This document shows, piece by piece, positions 16,551 to 31,379 of a DNA stretch of 44,750 nucleotides. The stretch is taken from positions 1-44,750 of the forward strand of contig CAYYWO010000008.1 in assembly GCA_964474885.1 (NCBI GenBank), read 5' to 3'. Positions within the stretch are counted from its first letter, which is position 1, and each line of letters opens with the position of its first letter. A program made the position numbers and the translations under genes. The stretch comes from Candidatus Hadarchaeota archaeon. Lineage in GTDB: Archaea > Hadarchaeota > Hadarchaeia > Hadarchaeales > JAWBSP01. The notes below the pieces were generated by a model. The model ran no database searches, was not told where the DNA came from, and worked only from the letters and a program-made list of their open reading frames with translations.

Positions 16551-16862
16551 ATGGAGGAAAAACTGCGGGAACTCCTCCGGAAGGTGCCCCCGGGGAGGGT
16601 GACCACCTACAAGGAGCTTTCGCTCGCGCTAGGCATGGAAAAAGGCTGGAGGGCTGTGGCGAAACTCCTGTCGAAAAACACCCGTCTTGTGGAGATCCCC
16701 TGCCACCGCGTAGTCTGTTCCGACGGCAGAATTGGGGGCTACAGATGGGGTGTCCGAAGAAAAATCGCCCTGTTAGAGCGGGAAGGTGTTAGGATTGAGG
16801 CAGGCCGTGTCGATTTGGGCAAGTACTTTTTCAGCCTGCGTCGGACTGGGAGACCTCCTTGA
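16551..16862 (+). CDS. ogt: O6-alkylguanine DNA alkyltransferase (C-terminal domain only)
   Basis: VP.G.VTTY, RAV, active-site PCHRV and GGY..G...K..LL..EG motifs. Confidence 0.9.
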   Translation: MEEKLRELLRKVPPGRVTTYKELSLALGMEKGWRAVAKLLSKNTRLVEIPCHRVVCSDGRIGGYRWGVRRKIALLEREGVRIEAGRVDLGKYFFSLRRTGRPP

Positions 16863-17376
16863 GTCTCTCTAAACCCTTGATTTGTTTTATGAACTCGGCC
16901 ACGGCTTTTGGAACTAAGTGTTCCCAAGGCTCCCCTTGGAGCATCCTGCGCCTTATTTCCCTCCCTTGATATTCCTTCCGGCTGTAAGGGGGGAAGGAGC
17001 GAACCTCGAACCCGGCCTCTTTGAAAAGCCTTGCCACGAGGGGGTTTCTGGTGTAAACGACCCTGAAAGGGGGCGAGAAGGAGAGGACGTGGGAGACCCA
17101 GAGAGCATTGTTGTTGATGTCTGGGATCGGAACGATCAGGATCTTCGACAGGTCCAAGCGCATCTCCGCCAGACTCTTTAAGAGCATGAGAACCCTCTCC
17201 CCGGCCGTGAAGGGATTGTCCACTGTATGGCTCTCCTGTGCACTTCCAATCCCTATCACGAGCTCCTCGTTCTCCCAGAGTATGTGCTTTACGACCTCCA
17301 TGTGACCGAGGTGAGGGGGCTGGAAGCGCCCTATGAGCAAAGCCCTCTTTTCTTCTGTCGGTATGAAGGGATTCAT
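16831..17376 (-). CDS. nadM: Nicotinamide-nucleotide adenylyltransferase
   Basis: GRFQP.HLGH, GSAQ.SH...NPFTAGER and IR..M..G..W..LVP motifs. Start 17376 forms an ATGA overlap with the upstream gene. Confidence 0.93.
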   Translation of the reverse strand: MNPFIPTEEKRALLIGRFQPPHLGHMEVVKHILWENEELVIGIGSAQESHTVDNPFTAGERVLMLLKSLAEMRLDLSKILIVPIPDINNNALWVSHVLSFSPPFRVVYTRNPLVARLFKEAGFEVRSFPPYSRKEYQGREIRRRMLQGEPWEHLVPKAVAEFIKQIKGLERLKEVSQSDAG

Positions 17377-17768
17377 TTCAACCCCCAGGAAATTACCTTT
17401 AACGGTTTTATCTTCAGCATGGGGGCCTCTCCTTCCTCCCATCTGTCCATCCGGGCCCACTTGAATCTCCTGAAGAAGAGTTCCGAAATACGTCTGAACT
17501 CCTGCCCTCCCTTCAGAACTTCGACTTCACCTTGGATGACCACAGCTTTGTGGCGTCCCGGACGGTACTCGTCCACAACTAACGCAACTCTAGGGTTTTC
17601 TAGGATGTTCCTGTACTTCTTTGTCCCGTAATCGGTTACGATGTAAATGTGCCTTCCTTCTAGGATGTAGCAAACAGGGACGACGTGAGGTGTGCCATCG
17701 CCCGAAACTGTGGCCAGCCTGCAAACCTCATGTTCTTTAAGGAACTCGCTTTCTTCCTTTCCGAGCAT
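17373..17768 (-). CDS. Pyridoxamine 5'-phosphate oxidase-like split-barrel flavin/F420-binding protein
   Basis: RLATV..DG.PHVVPV, K.RNI..NPRVALVVD and SWGL motifs. Confidence 0.88.
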   Translation of the reverse strand: MLGKEESEFLKEHEVCRLATVSGDGTPHVVPVCYILEGRHIYIVTDYGTKKYRNILENPRVALVVDEYRPGRHKAVVIQGEVEVLKGGQEFRRISELFFRRFKWARMDRWEEGEAPMLKIKPLKVISWGLK

Positions 17769-24730: not shown

Positions 24731-25537
24731 ATGAAGTTGGGCCTCTCGAGCCTCCTCTTCCTCTGCGACAAGCTGGGAAAGGCGGTTGCAACGGCTGCGA
24801 ACTTGGGGTACGAGGCGATCGAGATAGTCTATGACGTCCCGCACTTCATGCCGAGGGAGAAGCCGGAGGTTAGGGAGTTGAGGAAGGCCATCAAGGATCA
24901 CGGCCTAGCAGTGAGTGTTCACTCTAGTTTTTGGGATCTGAACGCTTCGAGCTTCTATCCCGAGGTATACAAATTGACCTTGAAGAGGATCAAGGAGAGT
25001 GCAAGGTTTTGTGAGGGGCTGGATTGCGAGGTTTTGGTGGTTCACTCCGGCAAGTGTCCAGCACCGGACTCAAGGGAAATCATGGACAAGTCTAAGATGA
25101 TTTACGAAAAGTTTCTCCGCGAGCTCTCCGAATACTGCAGGGGGAGGGGTGTCAGGATCGGACTGGAAAACGGCGGTTCAAAGGACAGTTTGTTCTCCCT
25201 GCTTCCGCACCTCTCCAAGCTGACACGCCGTTACGGGATGGGAATCACCCTAGATCTAGGTCATGTGTGTTTGAGATACGGGAAGGACAACATCGACAAA
25301 ATCCTGCGCGAGCTGAGGAGGATCAAAGACCAAGTTTTGCATGTGCATATCCATGATAATCACTGGCAGAGGGACGAGCATTTGGTACCGGGGGACGGTG
25401 CTCTGCCCCTGAGGGAAATGTTGGACGCGATAGCACCTTATTCGGGCATGCTCATCGCGGAACTCTGGAATCCGCAGGCCCCCCTGAAGACGGCAAAGCT
25501 AGCCCTCCGGCAGCTCAAGCTCATGGCTCAAAGGTAG
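24731..25537 (+). CDS. Sugar phosphate isomerase/epimerase (xylose-isomerase-like TIM barrel)
   Basis: SVH, VVHSG, GLEN, LD.GH, HVHIHDN...D.HL.PG.G and a C-terminal Glu. Confidence 0.88.
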   Translation: MKLGLSSLLFLCDKLGKAVATAANLGYEAIEIVYDVPHFMPREKPEVRELRKAIKDHGLAVSVHSSFWDLNASSFYPEVYKLTLKRIKESARFCEGLDCEVLVVHSGKCPAPDSREIMDKSKMIYEKFLRELSEYCRGRGVRIGLENGGSKDSLFSLLPHLSKLTRRYGMGITLDLGHVCLRYGKDNIDKILRELRRIKDQVLHVHIHDNHWQRDEHLVPGDGALPLREMLDAIAPYSGMLIAELWNPQAPLKTAKLALRQLKLMAQR

Positions 25538-27083
25538 CCCGGACGCTCGTGAAAAAAGGACCGCGGATGTCTATCCTTTTCCGGTTGGAGGTCACATAGA
25601 ATTGCAGCGGCTCGTCGAAACTCAGATTGATGTCGCTTGGGAGCTTCACGTTTTTAACCTTGATTTCGACTGAAGGTTCACCCGCCAAGCATGCTTCCTC
25701 TATCTTGCGTGCAGCCAGTAGGGCGAAGGCCCGCATGTAGGTTAGCCCGGTAGGCACGCCTCTCTTCCTCACCTCGCCGAATTCCTCCCAGGGAGGGAGG
25801 CCGATTATGTTTCCTTCACATACGTAGATCTCGTTGAATCCGGCCGGTCCCACGAGCTTCCTGCCGCTTTCTGACTCAAAAATCTCCACGGTTGTTTTCC
25901 TGCCAGCCATCTCTCCCTTCCAAACCTGGAAGCAACACGGGCTCGGCTCGTCTTTTCTCTCCCTTGCCACTTTCTCGATTTCCTGTGCGATGACCTTCCC
26001 CTCAGGGGTTAACGGCTGTAGCTCTGGATGGATCATCTTGGCGAGTTCTTTGTCGTCAAAGGAGGGCTGGCGGTAGAGATAGGGATAGCAGAGGGCGCGG
26101 ATGTCATCCTCACCAGTTTCGATCATGGCCAGCCTTTCCAATCCGATGCCTACGTTGAACACCGGGTAGGGGATGTCGTACTGGGCCAGGGCAATTGGAC
26201 TGTACATCCCCCCATCTCCCACTTCTATGGGCTCCTGAGTTTTTGGGTGACGGACGAAGACCTCAAACTCGGTCCCGGGGGCATAGTATCTGGAAGTTGC
26301 ACGCTTGAACTCGAAGTGGATTTGTGGGTACCCCATCCGCCGCAGGAAGTCACGGGTTATGTCCATCCCTTCTTTCAAGCCAATGTCCTCAGCCATTATC
26401 ACAAGCGAGGCTGTCCATGATTCGTAAAGGTGGGTAGAATCCAGTCTTTGCTCTCGCCGGAACTTGGGGCCGATCGAGAAGAGTTGGAGGGGAAGCGGTT
26501 CTCTCTTCATCATCTCACGGAGGACAGTGAACCAGCCAGCAGTGGTGTGCGAGCGGAGGGTCATATCTGTGGTCTTCGGTTGGAGTCTTCTGAACTCATC
26601 GAAAAGGGAGAGCACCCGGCCCGCCTCGTGTTCGCTCAGTCTGAGCTCCCTCACCAGCGTTTCTGTCAAATCGTCTGGGGAGACCTCACCCAACTTGTAG
26701 CGTCGAAAGATGTTCTGCAGTTTCTCGACATCCAGCTGAGGGGAGATTTCTCGGAGCTTTCTCTTCTTCTCCTCGCTGATGCCAATATCGGGTCTTTCGA
26801 GTACCGATAGGAAGAAAACCCTGTCCAAAATGACCGGTGCCTGGGGTCCGTACTGCTTGTAGACCTCAAATTTGTGGACTAGCATGGGGACCAGGGTTTC
26901 CGAAAAGCCCATCTCCAAAAAAGTTTTTCTAGCCCTCTCGATGAGCTTCCAAAGCGGGTGTTCTTTCCTTTTCTGGGTAACTCTGAAGCCACCCTCTTGA
27001 GTTATCAACTTGGAGCCCTCCTGCCAGGCCTCCTCGAAACTTTCCTCCGCTTTCTTTTTCAGCTCCTTAGGGTTGAACTTCAT
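25521..27083 (-). CDS. sepS: O-phosphoserine--tRNA(Cys) ligase (SepRS)
   Basis: KQYGP....ILDR.F.L, RPDIG, TLRSH.T.GWF, FRREQ..D..HL, S.YY.P..E.EV, YSP.AL..Y.I.YPV.N.G.G.ERLAMI and ID.RGP.F motifs. Confidence 0.96.
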   Translation of the reverse strand: MKFNPKELKKKAEESFEEAWQEGSKLITQEGGFRVTQKRKEHPLWKLIERARKTFLEMGFSETLVPMLVHKFEVYKQYGPQAPVILDRVFFLSVLERPDIGISEEKKRKLREISPQLDVEKLQNIFRRYKLGEVSPDDLTETLVRELRLSEHEAGRVLSLFDEFRRLQPKTTDMTLRSHTTAGWFTVLREMMKREPLPLQLFSIGPKFRREQRLDSTHLYESWTASLVIMAEDIGLKEGMDITRDFLRRMGYPQIHFEFKRATSRYYAPGTEFEVFVRHPKTQEPIEVGDGGMYSPIALAQYDIPYPVFNVGIGLERLAMIETGEDDIRALCYPYLYRQPSFDDKELAKMIHPELQPLTPEGKVIAQEIEKVARERKDEPSPCCFQVWKGEMAGRKTTVEIFESESGRKLVGPAGFNEIYVCEGNIIGLPPWEEFGEVRKRGVPTGLTYMRAFALLAARKIEEACLAGEPSVEIKVKNVKLPSDINLSFDEPLQFYVTSNRKRIDIRGPFFTSVRATFEP

Positions 27084-27634
27084 CCTTTAACCTTAGCAAG
27101 GGTGAGATCTCTGCGACTCTCCTCCAAGACCCTTCTCAACACGTCCCTCTTGTGTCTGAGCCCAGGTATGATGCTGTTCGGGTGATCGAAGTTCGAGAGG
27201 AACTGGAATATCTCTTCCATTCTGGCCAGCATTTCTTCTGCATGCTCGACTTTCTGTTTCCTAAGGCTGTCAAGCAAAAGTCTCCTGAGTTCCCCCGTTA
27301 GATCAGCGAGCGCGTTGAGGTAGGCCTCATAGCATACCCCCACCTGTTCAGGTTCCGGGATGTCTTTGCCCTCCAATATCTGGTGCAACATCAAAAACTC
27401 GGCATATTCTTGTTGGGCCACCATGAGCACGCTCGGTGTGGAGTGGGGTGAGCTCTTCTCCAGTTCGTCCAGCTCTTTCTTTATGCGCTGGAGAAGCTTA
27501 CTTGGGGAGCGGCCCCGGTGGAGCATCTCTATCCCCTTCGAGCAAAGCCGCACTATTTTCCTCGATAAATCCTGTGCTCTTCTGAGTTTTCTCTCTCTTT
27601 CGTCGAAGTACCTTCGAATTTTGGTGGCGTTCAT
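27080..27634 (-). CDS. Translin/Trax (C3PO)-family protein
   Basis: LSR.IVR.C...I..LH, AQQEYAE, YL..LAD..GELRR and LR.K.D..R motifs. Confidence 0.88.
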   Translation of the reverse strand: MNATKIRRYFDERERKLRRAQDLSRKIVRLCSKGIEMLHRGRSPSKLLQRIKKELDELEKSSPHSTPSVLMVAQQEYAEFLMLHQILEGKDIPEPEQVGVCYEAYLNALADLTGELRRLLLDSLRKQKVEHAEEMLARMEEIFQFLSNFDHPNSIIPGLRHKRDVLRRVLEESRRDLTLAKVKG

Positions 27635-28053
27635 CCGCTTACTTCTTTCGTTGGTCTTAGAATATTGGTTTTGTGGTAGCGGAATTTGTGAATCATCCCC
27701 TTTTTCTCCAAGTTATTCACGATGGCGCTGAGCTTGGCTTTCGACATATCGACAATCCGGCGCAGATCGTCCTGCCGAACTTCCTTCCGAACGAGTATCT
27801 CCCTCAAGACCTTTTGCTCATCTTCGTTGAGCGAGAGCATAACAACCCTGAGCGTTCTTTCTCTCGCATAGTGTTTGAAGAGGAAGAAAAGAGTGATAGT
27901 CAATCCTCCCACCACTCCGACCATCATGAAGGTGCTGACAATTATCGTTGAGATGTCAATTCCATGAGGACTTACCCAGTACAGCAAACAACCAAAGGAA
28001 ATCTCCACGACTAGGATGAGAACAACAATCGCCACGGCTTCAAGAATTCTCAT
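27631..28053 (-). CDS. Membrane-anchored winged-helix transcriptional regulator
   Basis: Two N-terminal TM helices followed by L.EDEQKVL, Q.DL...SKAKLS.IV..LE.KG.I.K and TN. Confidence 0.82.
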   Translation of the reverse strand: MRILEAVAIVVLILVVEISFGCLLYWVSPHGIDISTIIVSTFMMVGVVGGLTITLFFLFKHYARERTLRVVMLSLNEDEQKVLREILVRKEVRQDDLRRIVDMSKAKLSAIVNNLEKKGMIHKFRYHKTNILRPTKEVSG

Positions 28054-28125: not shown

Positions 28126-29832
28126 TTATTTTTTCATCAAAACAACTCTGCTCTCAGTAGACTGATCCACTATCTTGTATCCGCAGTGCCGTGAGATTTC
28201 CTGTGCAAACTCCAGCACATCATTGTGCGACGGCATGTTCGTCATCTGCAAGCGATTTCTGGAGAAGCCCACATGCATGTAAGCCTTCGCTTCCACGAAG
28301 TCCGGATTGCTCTTTTCAATCAAGTCTGCATAAAGCTGGGGCTTACACATGTTGAATTCCTTTACAAGAGTAAGCCTGATAACTTTCCGGCAGGAGAAAC
28401 TGTTCAGTAGCTCCAATGATCGCAAGAGTCTGCTCCATCCATCTGGAAGCAGCGGCCTGCATAATTTTCTATAGATTTCCTCCTCCGGTGCGGCTACCGT
28501 TATGTACAGCTGAGTGGGCTCCTCTGAAAGGGCCTGTAGCTTTTCGGGAAAAGTACCGTTGCTTACGACGAACGTGGTGAAGTTTCTCCTTTTGAACTCC
28601 GTGAGGAGCTCCGACAGACGATCATACATGGTTGGCTCTCCAGCTAGGCTTATTGCAGCATGCTTGGGATCTTGTGACTCCTGCCAGCGCTTAGGATCGA
28701 CCTTTGGGTTACCTTTGAAACCGCTCAAGAGTTCCCTCTGTGCCTGAATACTCCTCTCGATTATCTCGACCGGGTCGTCTGGAGGTAATGTCTCCCTGCA
28801 AGTAGCCTCGACCATCCTCCAGCAAAAGAGGCACCGCTGTGAGCAATTGAATAGGGAGGGTGTCATCTGCAGGCACCTCCAGGATGAGATCCCGTAGAAT
28901 TTCGACTTGTAACAGGAGGTGCCCCCTAGCAGGCTGTTTTTGGTCCAGTGGCAAATCTTCACGGCCGAATTCGTTCCGACGATTCTATACCCCTGCTTCA
29001 GGTACCCCTCCACATATTCGGGTCGCACGGGCATGGGAGTTATCGAAAAGGAGCTGAGGGGCTTGGCGCGGATTTCGCTAGCTAAGTTCCCGAGATTCTT
29101 TGCAAGCTCCAGCAAGCCAGCGCTACCGATATAGGCTAGTTTATCACCGGGCTGGGCATCGCCAAACGTCCTCAGAAATCGTGCGGCAAACCTGACGGTC
29201 TTGAATTCGACAAGCAAGCTTTGACCGAGGGGGAAACTGACTATGCGCTGGGGGATGTTTGTTACAAGATTACCGAATCGGTCGATGTGCAAAATTGAGC
29301 CAGTAATTCTTCGACCAGTCAGCTCGGCTTGAGGTATTTCCAGTTTGGTGTAACCAGTTTTGGGTCCCACTAAACTAATCTCTATTCCCTTGCTCAACCA
29401 TGCAGCTACCGGGGCCAGTATGTCCCTCCCGTGAAAGGTCGGTGAGATTTCTTGCCGCAAAAACTCGGGGTTCTTGATTTCTCTAACTTCTTCAACACCA
29501 TAGACCTCAGCAACTAAGGTGAGCAAGCCATTGTCTGGTGCCACGAAGCAAAGCCGATTCTTGGTTTGCATGACCACGCACTTCCGCTGGGTTCCTACTC
29601 CAGGATCCACGACAGCCAGAAAGATCGTGCCTGCGGGGAAGGTCATGGAGGCGTTCAGCAGAACAAAAGCCCCTTCTAAAATGTCTCCGCCCCTTATTTC
29701 GTGCGAAATATCGACTATCCGTGCTTCAGGATTGATCGAAAGAATGACCCCTTTAACGGCTCCTACATAGTAGTCCCGTTCACCGAAATCCGTCAGCAGT
29801 GCGATTGTGCGCCTATTTCTTTCTGCGCTCAA
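28126..29832 (-). CDS. taw1: Fusion: DUF62 SAM hydroxide adenosyltransferase + 4-demethylwyosine synthase Taw1/TYW1
   Basis: N-half LLTDFG, VVDPGVG, APDNG, TFHGRD, IDRFGN. C-half CHW, CYK..FYG..S.RC, CxxxCxxC, H.AISL.GEP, KAYM.VG.SR. No stop between the halves. Confidence 0.92.
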   Translation of the reverse strand: MSAERNRRTIALLTDFGERDYYVGAVKGVILSINPEARIVDISHEIRGGDILEGAFVLLNASMTFPAGTIFLAVVDPGVGTQRKCVVMQTKNRLCFVAPDNGLLTLVAEVYGVEEVREIKNPEFLRQEISPTFHGRDILAPVAAWLSKGIEISLVGPKTGYTKLEIPQAELTGRRITGSILHIDRFGNLVTNIPQRIVSFPLGQSLLVEFKTVRFAARFLRTFGDAQPGDKLAYIGSAGLLELAKNLGNLASEIRAKPLSSFSITPMPVRPEYVEGYLKQGYRIVGTNSAVKICHWTKNSLLGGTSCYKSKFYGISSWRCLQMTPSLFNCSQRCLFCWRMVEATCRETLPPDDPVEIIERSIQAQRELLSGFKGNPKVDPKRWQESQDPKHAAISLAGEPTMYDRLSELLTEFKRRNFTTFVVSNGTFPEKLQALSEEPTQLYITVAAPEEEIYRKLCRPLLPDGWSRLLRSLELLNSFSCRKVIRLTLVKEFNMCKPQLYADLIEKSNPDFVEAKAYMHVGFSRNRLQMTNMPSHNDVLEFAQEISRHCGYKIVDQSTESRVVLMKK

Positions 29833-31360
29833 ACCACTGGTTTATACCATTTATCATGGCTTGGACACTGGCGAGGACAACGTCCTCCGACACGCCCCTG
29901 GCCAAGTAAAGATCCCCGTTTTCATCCCTGAGCTTTATGGTCACATCCGCGAGGGCGTCACTGCCCCCGGTTATGGCATCCAAGTGAAACTCAACGAGTT
30001 CCAGCCTTGAGACCTCGCTTATGATGCTGGCGATGGCTTTCAGGGCAGCATCTACTGGACCCACTCCTGTTGCAGAGCCAACCTTCGGCTCACTGTTGAT
30101 AGATAGCTTGACTGTAGCGGTGGGGGTCACCTTGTTTCCTGTGGTAACGGTTACCTCGCTGAGCTCCACAGCCTTCTTCTCCTTGGGCAGGCTACCGACC
30201 GTGGCCTCGGCTATCGCCTTCAGGTCCACAAGGGTTACTGTCTTTCCCTTGTCCCCGAGCTCCTTGACCTTCCTTGTGATCTCCGCTAGCTGAGCGGGTG
30301 TGACTTTGATCCCCAATTCCTCTAGCTGCCTCTCAACTGAGTGTATACCAGTGTGTTTTCCCAGCACGAGTCTCCGATGGGCACCGACGAGTTCGGGGGA
30401 AAGGGGTTCATAGGTTCCAGGGAACTGAAGCACCCCGTGGACATGTATCCCCGACTCGTGGGCGAAGGCGTTATCACCCACTATCGGCTTGTGGGGTTGG
30501 ACGGGTATCCGCGTCAGCCTCCTAACGAGGTCGGAGGTTTCCACCAGCATCTCGGTTCTGACCCTAGGCCTGATGTTGTAAAAAGCCCTGAGCCCCATAA
30601 CCACTTCCTCGAGGGCGGCATTCCCCGCCCTCTCCCCAAGTCCGTTGACCGTCACGTGAACCTGTTCCGCCCCGGCCTCCACACCAGCTAGGGAGTTCGC
30701 TACCGCCATTCCCAAGTCGTTATGGCAGTGGACACTGATGGGGATTTTGAGGTGTTTTTTGAGCTCGCTTATAAGCCAAAACATCGCCCTAGGGGTCATG
30801 ACACCCACGGTGTCGGGGACGTTTATTATGTCCGCCCCCGCCCTCTCGGCGGCTAGGTAAACCTCCCGCAGGAAGGAGAAGTCCGTCCTCGTCGCATCCT
30901 CCGCGGAGAATTCTACTTTCACTCCACGGGATTTGGTGTACTCTACCCACTTCATAGCGGTTTCGAGCACCTGCTCTCTAGTCATCCTGAGCTTGTGCCT
31001 GAGGTGAATGTCCGAGGTAGCTATGAAAACGTGAACACGGTCGACACCACAATCTATTGCGGTGTCGATGTCCTCCTGCCTGCATCTCGCAAGTCCGCAT
31101 ATTTCTGCCTCCAAACCTTGTTTTGCGATTGCGGTCACCGCTTCCTTCTCCCCCTGTGAGGCTATGGGGAATCCTGCCTCGATAACGTCAACTCCCAGCT
31201 TGTCCAATTGTTTGGCAATAGTGAGTTTCTGTTGAGGGGTTAGCGAAACGCCTGGAGTCTGTTCACCGTCTCTGAGAGTGGTGTCGAAAATCCTAACCTC
31301 CCTTGGTAGACGCAATTGGCTCTCTACCCTCTTGATGTAGTCTCCGACGGCGATTTCCAT
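29813..31360 (-). CDS. leuA: 2-isopropylmalate synthase (archaeal LeuA type)
   Basis: DTTLRDGEQ, EAGFP, H.HND.G, GERAGN and a C-terminal regulatory domain with G.GPVDA. N-terminal extension is typical of archaeal LeuA; paralog assignment is inference. Confidence 0.8.
   Translation of the reverse strand: MEIAVGDYIKRVESQLRLPREVRIFDTTLRDGEQTPGVSLTPQQKLTIAKQLDKLGVDVIEAGFPIASQGEKEAVTAIAKQGLEAEICGLARCRQEDIDTAIDCGVDRVHVFIATSDIHLRHKLRMTREQVLETAMKWVEYTKSRGVKVEFSAEDATRTDFSFLREVYLAAERAGADIINVPDTVGVMTPRAMFWLISELKKHLKIPISVHCHNDLGMAVANSLAGVEAGAEQVHVTVNGLGERAGNAALEEVVMGLRAFYNIRPRVRTEMLVETSDLVRRLTRIPVQPHKPIVGDNAFAHESGIHVHGVLQFPGTYEPLSPELVGAHRRLVLGKHTGIHSVERQLEELGIKVTPAQLAEITRKVKELGDKGKTVTLVDLKAIAEATVGSLPKEKKAVELSEVTVTTGNKVTPTATVKLSINSEPKVGSATGVGPVDAALKAIASIISEVSRLELVEFHLDAITGGSDALADVTIKLRDENGDLYLARGVSEDVVLASVQAMINGINQWFERRKK
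30435..30505. repeat. Left arm of a perfect 71-bp inverted repeat (inside leuA)
   Basis: Its reverse complement is identical to 32205-32275. Confidence 0.95.
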
Positions 31361-31379
31361 CAACAAAGGGAAATCCGGG

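Follow-up and report, generated by a model that had tools for sequence, protein, structure and literature searches.

Why should an enzyme that uses S-adenosylmethionine (SAM) to modify tRNA be joined, within one polypeptide, to an enzyme that destroys SAM? The question is raised by a single open reading frame (ORF) in a 44,750-nucleotide stretch of DNA, hereafter called the window, from Candidatus Hadarchaeota archaeon of the order Hadarchaeales (GenBank assembly GCA_964474885.1, contig CAYYWO010000008.1, positions 1 to 44,750). The ORF listing of the window gives it as 28126..29832 on the minus strand, 568 amino acids (aa) from a TTG start, and it encodes what appears to be a DUF62-type SAM hydrolase followed directly by Taw1 (TYW1), the radical-SAM enzyme of wyosine synthesis. 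A preliminary description of this DNA had recognized the in-frame fusion, giving no strand, and had proposed that the hydrolase proofreads the cofactor of its partner. The fusion is real and is conserved within one small genus-level lineage of the Hadarchaeales. As to its meaning, we lean, with a little more belief than doubt, towards a genuine bifunctional enzyme of single origin whose hydrolase half serves the whole SAM pool, with no substrate channelling between the halves.

The two halves of the protein

The N-terminal part of the protein matches both Pfam domains of the DUF62 family far above their cut-offs: SAM_HAT_N at residues 10-155 (E = 1.3e-54, 184.4 bits against a cut-off of 26.3) and SAM_HAT_C at residues 178-258 (E = 5.6e-20, 71.9 bits against 25.5). 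Against the solved structure 2zbu, it gives an E-value of 1.7e-59 with the full protein as query and 3.3e-60 when the domain is searched alone. Alignment offsets to the solved structure of PH0463 lay Asp76, Arg83, and His134 onto D68, R75, and H127, the numbers of the triad in that protein. This triad activates water, and the halogenases lack it. According to PMC10491745, the Asp-Arg-His triad is strictly conserved and is specific to hydrolytic DUF62 proteins. The motif TFHGRD, whose histidine had earlier been read as a sign of the hydrolase type, is indeed present at residues 132-137, and the triad around it aligns with that of PH0463. DPGVGT.RK and TFHGRD occur in all nine fused sequences (9/9), and the motifs TDFG, PDNG, FGN..TN, and GS.G.LE are also retained throughout them. 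By these signs, residues 9-266 amount to a complete DUF62 SAM hydrolase with its Asp76/Arg83/His134 triad. The half resembles the stand-alone enzymes of T. maritima (2zbu), P. horikoshii (PH0463; 1wu8/2wr8), and M. jannaschii (MJ1651; 2f4n/22uy) in both Pfam domains, in fold, and in triad, but only the fusion has a 300-residue radical-SAM enzyme welded to its C-terminus, and it falls short of the narrow (R)-SAM hydrolase models considered below.

The remainder of the protein matches Radical_SAM (residues 329-497, E = 2.1e-12) and Wyosine_form (residues 507-567, E = 1e-24), both above the Pfam cut-offs. It also matches the NCBIfam model for TYW1, TIGR03972, which is covered from position 5 to 297 of its 297 positions by residues 277-567 (416.8 bits against a cut-off of 317.95), and it is 52% identical to 2yx0 (E = 2.8e-104). 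Alignment offsets map C294, C307, K309, and C320 onto C26, C39, K41, and C52 of the M. jannaschii enzyme, where K41 is the lysine that forms the pyruvate adduct (PMC7761594). These residues and the cysteines C330, C334, and C337 of the radical-SAM motif are invariant in all 10 aligned sequences (10/10). TFHGRD, the CxxxCxxC motif, and the auxiliary cysteines and lysine are all present, as stated in the preliminary description, which judged both catalytic sets intact, and residues ~266-568 have the marks of a complete Taw1/TYW1, with both sets of Fe-S cysteines and the pyruvate-binding Lys309.

TIGR03972, the cluster motifs, and the pyruvate lysine are shared with archaeal Taw1 (P. horikoshii PH1705, 2yx0; M. 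jannaschii MJ0257, 2z2u/6djt). The solved and typical archaeal enzymes, however, are single-domain proteins of ~310-340 aa, whereas the N-terminus of Taw1 in the fusion continues from the DUF62 fold. Eukaryotic TYW1 follows the same logic, with an accessory domain N-terminal to the core (P0259 and P0256 read Flavodoxin_1, Radical_SAM, Wyosine_form). There the accessory is a flavodoxin that binds flavin mononucleotide (FMN) and supplies electrons (PMC7761594), but in the fusion it is a SAM hydrolase. Pfam finds no Flavodoxin_1 match in the fusion at E up to 0.01, which sets it apart from TYW1 of the eukaryotic type. Each half seems, on its sequence, to be an ordinary member of its family. What is new is the combination.

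The junction

The two folds seem to meet with no spacer between them. When an AlphaFold2 model of the protein is aligned with solved structures, the DUF62 fold runs to about residue 266, and that of Taw1 sets in at 263-268. Residues 1-263 of 2zbu_A lie on model residues 9-266 (Z 30.1, root-mean-square deviation 1.4, 258 aligned), residues 13-325 of 2yx0 on model residues 263/266-568 (Z 41.7, root-mean-square deviation 1.5, 298 aligned), and residues 0-302 of 6djt on the Taw1 part (Z 39.1). In a 58-row alignment, stand-alone DUF62 proteins stop 20-45 residues (most 29-34) past G236-S237, and stand-alone TYW1 proteins start at fusion residues 254-279. The model has a mean predicted local distance difference test score (pLDDT) of 96 and a predicted template modelling score (pTM) of 0.90, and it stays confident across the junction; it rests on the same 58-row alignment, in which those C-terminal stretches of 20-45 residues (most 29-34) were misplaced for the stand-alone DUF62 proteins. 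Complex prediction with the halves as separate chains (DUF62 1-262, Taw1 268-568) gave a docking score of 0.00, which weighs neither for nor against binding.

The internal methionine noted earlier at 29034 is M267 (codon 29034..29032). It was considered as a conserved internal start for a separate Taw1 and rejected, since a methionine stands at this place in only two of seven fused proteins, with V, A, or H in the rest.

Reality, spread, and origin of the fusion

Could the fusion be an artefact of assembly? The genomes searched were 61 from the same order, three of them of the window's genus (G000, which is the window's own genome, G001, and G002) and 58 others. The protein is matched without interruption in all three species of the genus (residues 1-568 in G000, 7-568 in G001, and 8-568 in G002). 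The frames are open over 571, 566, and 608 aa in the window, G001, and G002, respectively, with no internal stop and no frameshift; a stop before Met 29034, which the preliminary description had said would refute its reading, is found in none of them. Contigs of two sequencing runs, X3 (28982-29140) and X4 (28975-29125), read across position 29034 without a single difference. (Run X1 spans the stretch from end to end, but this DNA may have come from that very run, and the piece from run X2 starts at 29007, too near the junction to count.) The fusions in G001 and G002, the bridging contigs of X3 and X4, and the public protein P0004, described next, rule out an assembly chimera. All public holders of the stretch are vent or sediment metagenomes.

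The architecture has a narrow range. Among the 120 relatives listed, each a 90%-identity cluster, all four Pfam domains are present in seven, namely the window's own and P0003-P0008 (558-603 aa, 63-65% identical to the window protein), and the other 113 are single-domain TYW1. Among the best 150 matches that HMMER drew from 1.84 billion 50%-identity representatives, P0004 (851 bits) is the only protein spanning both halves, and the next-best representative reaches 335 bits over one half only. The fusion is absent from all 58 other genomes of the order. A stand-alone TYW1 match is found in 55 of them, a stand-alone DUF62 match in 29, and both in 27; in 26 of these 27 the two genes lie on different contigs, and in G008 they are 98 kb apart on one contig. 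These counts agree with the view that Taw1 is normally a stand-alone protein. No published description of the DUF62-TYW1 architecture was found in the literature searched, which did not cover Kornfuehrer et al. 2020, and the earlier impression that it is undescribed holds to that extent. In public databases the fused proteins are filed simply as 'TYW1', with one cluster named by NCBI as Candidatus Hadarchaeales TYW1.

In the TYW1 tree the nine fused rows form one clade, sister to family f2, with a support of 95 in the Shimodaira-Hasegawa-like approximate likelihood-ratio test (SH-aLRT), and in the DUF62 tree they again form one clade (SH-aLRT 99). Because the spread is narrow and the fused proteins group together in the trees of both halves, the evidence points to a fusion that arose once.

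Two observations on stand-alone TYW1 genes may be recorded here. In several genomes of family f3, matches extend upstream of the gene from query residue 234-242, running through stops, in a way that might suggest a DUF62 remnant. The translation shows the extension to be the C-terminal end of an unrelated gene (...GSGGGHAGAAS..., presumably DHH/DHHA1-like), and it was set aside as a chance extension. At G011:C1:636651-637537, TYW1 appears as two overlapping pieces in different frames (residues 279-450 and 428-568, in open frames of 216 and 148 aa); this may be a frameshifted or split gene.

Gene order and the path to fusion

How did the two genes come together? A translin-like gene follows TYW1 in nine of the relatives' 27 TYW1 loci (L018, L019, L020, L022, L023, L024, L026, L027, and L035), and in seven of those nine SepRS is visible as well. 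By this comparison, the order TYW1, translin-like, SepRS is ancestral and is shared between families of the Hadarchaeales. The window keeps it, with one winged helix-turn-helix (wHTH) gene inserted after Taw1 (Table 1). DUF62 appears in none of the 27 TYW1 loci, and TYW1 in none of the 16 stand-alone DUF62 loci (L036-L051). In the latter, a gene for archaeal NMN adenylyltransferase (NMNAT) lies directly downstream on the same strand in 12 (e.g., L040:3504-6502), thiC, named by Pfam 'Radical SAM ThiC family', lies divergently upstream in 10, and SAM synthetase is directly upstream in one (G017, L044). In G000, thiC is on another contig, and NMNAT is ~11 kb from the fusion, at 16831-17460. Since the window retains the TYW1 order, while thiC and NMNAT lie elsewhere in G000, it was DUF62 that moved. 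The only DUF62 gene of the lineage probably left its neighbourhood of thiC and NMNAT for a site immediately 5' of taw1, where a LeuA/CimA-like gene common to all three species lies upstream of it. Once the DUF62 stop was lost, the native C-terminus of the first fold would have run straight into the native N-terminus of the second.

Upstream of the TTG start, the frame is open for only three codons more (571 aa), and no alternative ATG, GTG, or TTG start occurs within codons 1-9 of the ORF. Its first 20 nt (29813-29832) overlap the 3' end of the LeuA/CimA-like gene; in G001 the start is GTG and the overlap 4 nt (L007:1492-1495). Such overlaps suggest translational coupling in a compact 1.18-Mb genome. 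The SepRS of the window presumably belongs to the indirect route to Cys-tRNA.

Table 1. Features of the fusion gene and its neighbours (window coordinates; residues are those of the 568-aa protein)
Feature	Position	Strand	Remarks
Whole fusion ORF	28126..29832	-	568 aa + TAA stop; same open fusion in G001, G002, P0003-P0008
DUF62 N-terminal domain (SAM_HAT_N)	29368..29805	-	residues 10-155; D76 29605-29607, R83 29584-29586, H134 29431-29433
DUF62 C-terminal beta-barrel domain (SAM_HAT_C)	29059..29301	-	residues 178-258
Junction	29005..29058	-	residues 259-276, including M267 (29032-29034)
Taw1/TYW1 radical-SAM enzyme	28132..29004	-	residues 277-567; TIGR03972, 2yx0
Putative auxiliary [4Fe-4S] ligands C294 (CHW), C307, C320 (RC) and Schiff-base K309 (CYK)	28873..28953	-	alignment to 2z2u/6djt
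Radical-SAM cluster motif C330xxxC334xxC337	28822..28845	-	maps onto M. jannaschii C62/C66/C69
LeuA/CimA-like synthase (HMGL-like + LeuA_dimer), upstream	29813..31366	-	same gene upstream of fusion in G001, G002
MarR/TrmB-like wHTH protein, downstream	27631-28053	-	N-terminal hydrophobic stretch
Translin-like protein, downstream	27080-27634	-	follows TYW1 in 9 of 27 relatives' loci
SepRS, downstream	25521-27083	-	also present in 7 of those 9 loci

Copy number and constraint

The fusion is the sole DUF62 and the sole TYW1 in G000 (92% complete, 1.18 Mb), and G001 and G002 have one DUF62 each. A second TYW1 in G000 was considered and rejected, the three other matches to the TYW1 model scoring 22-28 bits, well below the cut-off; a second DUF62 was likewise looked for and none found in the 92%-complete genome. 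Taw1 is one of 21 radical-SAM matches in G000, and the other 20 are unfused. Of the expected partners in the pathway, which are Trm5 for m1G37, Taw2/Taw22, and Taw3, G000 has two genes of the TRM5-TYW2 family (218 and 197 bits) and, within the 92% represented, no match to TYW3.

Has the DUF62 half decayed since it was joined to Taw1? Over 21 pairs of fused proteins, the DUF62 halves are on average 68% identical and the TYW1 halves 72%, a ratio of 0.95. Over 21 genome pairs with stand-alone genes, the figures are 62% and 68%, a ratio of 0.91. Because the ratio is 0.95 for the fused and 0.91 for the stand-alone forms, the DUF62 half shows no relaxation since the fusion and has remained under the constraint of a stand-alone protein over a divergence of ~65% identity. 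P0008 is discordant: its DUF62 half is 61% identical to that of P0003 and has a branch of 0.64, and their Taw1 halves are 87% identical. Faster evolution of the P0008 lineage, or a recombination event there, could be the cause.

Other partners of DUF62

DUF62 is fused to other proteins as well. The sample considered here consists of 95 long DUF62-containing clusters, gathered through a word index and biased toward the present query. Seven of them are DUF62-TYW1. Three are DUF62-BioA (P0125, P0129, and P0192; 705-719 aa), colinear at 46% identity, whose BioA parts score 530-553 bits on TIGR00508 against a cut-off of 405; BioA is the 8-amino-7-oxononanoate transaminase that depends on SAM. One is DUF62-BioD (P0145), and one joins DUF62 to TRAM and an RlmD-type methyltransferase (P0196). 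DUF62 stands N-terminal in the BioA, RlmD-type, and TYW1 fusions alike, and all three partners consume SAM. The BioA and RlmD-type partners, however, use it as an amino or methyl donor and not for radical chemistry, and these fusions belong to unrelated lineages and represent independent events. No account of DUF62-BioA, DUF62-BioD, or DUF62-RlmD-type fusions was found in the literature; one review, in the part accessible, treats DUF62 and BioA separately.

Most of the sample is of another kind. In 68 of the 95 clusters, an N-terminal YfcE-type metallophosphoesterase precedes DUF62 in a protein of ~520 aa (P0128, P0130-P0205); some of these clusters are source-named Chloroflexota, Anaerolineae, or Elusimicrobia. 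No use of SAM is known for YfcE-type phosphoesterases. Further partners with no link to SAM are PMT_2, acyl-CoA dehydrogenase, M50, VanX, LarC, PGM, and KAS. P0277 (660 aa) is a DUF62 protein with a C-terminal N_BRCA1_IG (Ig-like) domain.

What the hydrolase may do for Taw1

SAM epimerizes at its sulfonium centre, and heat accelerates the process, as reported in a preprint (bioRxiv 10.1101/2025.08.29.672840). When the SAM hydrolase of S. acidocaldarius was knocked out, according to the same text, the share of (R,S)-SAM rose from 8% to 17%, and (R,S)-SAM is reported there to inhibit some SAM enzymes. The host of the fusion is probably hyperthermophilic: its DNA comes from vent metagenomes, and 36 ORFs of the window have an IVYWREL fraction of 0.456. 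By regression, that fraction would correspond to roughly 92 C.

If the fusion is the bifunctional enzyme that we favour, its N-terminal half would use water to split the inactive (R,S) sulfonium epimer into adenosine and methionine, as other DUF62 proteins do, and its C-terminal half would convert m1G37 of tRNA-Phe to 4-demethylwyosine, with SAM, pyruvate, and two Fe-S clusters. Kornfuehrer et al. 2020 (ChemBioChem) reportedly described stereoselectivity in DUF62. Other members of the family have been shown to hydrolyse (R,S)-SAM stereoselectively (PMC12120602 and bioRxiv 10.1101/2025.08.29.672840). Since the cell has no SAM hydrolase but the DUF62 half, that half most likely keeps clean all the SAM of a cell that is probably hyperthermophilic. 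Its link to Taw1, and with it the benefit of the fusion, would then lie in a shared need for clean SAM and in obligatory co-expression rather than in substrate channelling. The fusion would probably assemble on a DUF62 trimer.

Several observations weigh against such an enzyme. The two NCBIfam equivalog models for (R)-SAM hydrolase are matched over their full length but far below their cut-offs (NF058624, 186.4 bits against 350; NF053629, 154.2 bits against 470). These are narrow models, and the other DUF62 fusions checked also score below them; nonetheless, because the cut-offs are not reached, the stereoselectivity of the DUF62 half is extrapolated from the family. No RNA run appears among the listed holders of the stretch. 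The predicted orientation of the two domains is confident in one model alone, the one whose alignment is partly misplaced, and a second model, built for P0004 from the 7 fused sequences only, is of too low a quality to replicate it (pLDDT 71.5, pTM 0.49). DUF62 active sites sit between the protomers of a homotrimer (PMC12120602), and a trimer would have to carry a rigidly attached 300-residue Taw1. The same source presents the physiological role of DUF62 as disputed and doubts that (R,S)-SAM hydrolysis is its real function, whereas an opposite camp takes it for damage control against (R,S)-SAM, with the Sulfolobus knock-out as support (bioRxiv 10.1101/2025.08.29.672840). The commonest fusion partner of DUF62, as seen above, is a phosphoesterase. 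Finally, none of the three genomes of sister genus g2 in family f2 (G003, G007, and G010; 93-95% complete) has DUF62, and its activity thus seems dispensable in close kin. (The TYW1 of g2 is the closest to the fused clade.)

Perhaps, instead, as the preliminary description supposed, the DUF62 half is a proofreader that protects Taw1. Dedicated to its neighbour, it would remove (R,S)-SAM at the radical-SAM site or pass clean SAM on to it, and the fused form would then do better than its parts apart. The circumstantial side of this reading is plausible. The halves are joined without a linker, and their orientation is predicted confidently in one model; DUF62 precedes enzymes that consume SAM in three architectures unrelated to one another (with TYW1, BioA, and an RlmD-type partner); the host looks hyperthermophilic; (R,S)-SAM reportedly inhibits some SAM enzymes; and in relatives DUF62 adjoins thiC and, once, SAM synthetase, which speaks for a SAM-related link. 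It is the role specific to Taw1 that fares badly. The only DUF62 in the genome cannot be reserved for one enzyme when 20 other radical-SAM matches stand unfused beside it. The fusion is confined to one genus, the sister genus does without any DUF62, and the phosphoesterase and several other partners in the long DUF62 clusters have no link to SAM. Also, a tether without a channel should give no local depletion of SAM, because small molecules cross nanometre distances by diffusion long before a slow hydrolase completes a turnover, and turnover in DUF62 enzymes is slow. We therefore regard a service reserved for Taw1 as unlikely. As a Rosetta-stone clue to the function of DUF62, which it was also suggested to be, the fusion is real but modest, since the TYW1 combination is confined to one genus-level clade.

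The fusion might also be accidental and neutral: in a small, streamlined genome the genes were brought together by a rearrangement, a stop was lost, and the halves work independently, several mutations being needed to split them again. A single origin and a narrow spread are what one would expect of an accident. The genome is 1.18 Mb with overlapping genes, DUF62 and TYW1 never adjoin in the 27 relatives that have both, and DUF62 is also fused to enzymes with no link to SAM. But an exact, spacer-free join that is predicted to fold confidently would be unusual for a random read-through, and SAM-consuming partners recur among DUF62 fusions. Moreover, both halves have remained under constraint like that of stand-alone proteins, and the fused copy has been kept in all three species, although the sister genus lost DUF62. 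An accident of this sort seems to us rather improbable, and the bifunctional enzyme remains the explanation we prefer.

That the DUF62 half no longer hydrolyses SAM and is a trimerization scaffold, or a regulatory module binding SAM or adenosine, is very improbable: the fast divergence of the half in P0008 and the missed equivalog cut-offs would fit, but no fused sequence has lost the triad (specific to hydrolytic DUF62 according to PMC10491745) or any other family motif, and overall constraint equals that of stand-alone DUF62.

Significance

Whatever its benefit to the cell, the fusion brings a new kind of accessory domain to TYW1, a solution that stands beside the flavodoxin fusion of eukaryotes. 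It is found in one small clade, and a functional coupling of the halves is a proposal. A bolder proposal, which we consider doubtful, is that DUF62 is a physically coupled guardian of slow SAM consumers. Docked rigidly on Taw1, it would form a trimer of fusions that keeps the inhibitory (R,S)-SAM off the radical-SAM site or supplies that site with checked SAM, and the BioA and RlmD-type fusions would follow the same principle. If true, it would end the dispute over what DUF62 proteins do in the cell. If the fusion is merely neutral, it is a well-documented marker of one genus of the Hadarchaeales. For the disputed role of DUF62 the protein is a natural test object, in which the only DUF62 of a likely hyperthermophile is seamlessly joined to a radical-SAM enzyme of tRNA, so that both predicted activities come together in one polypeptide; the parallel fusions of DUF62 to BioA and to an RNA methyltransferase belong beside it.

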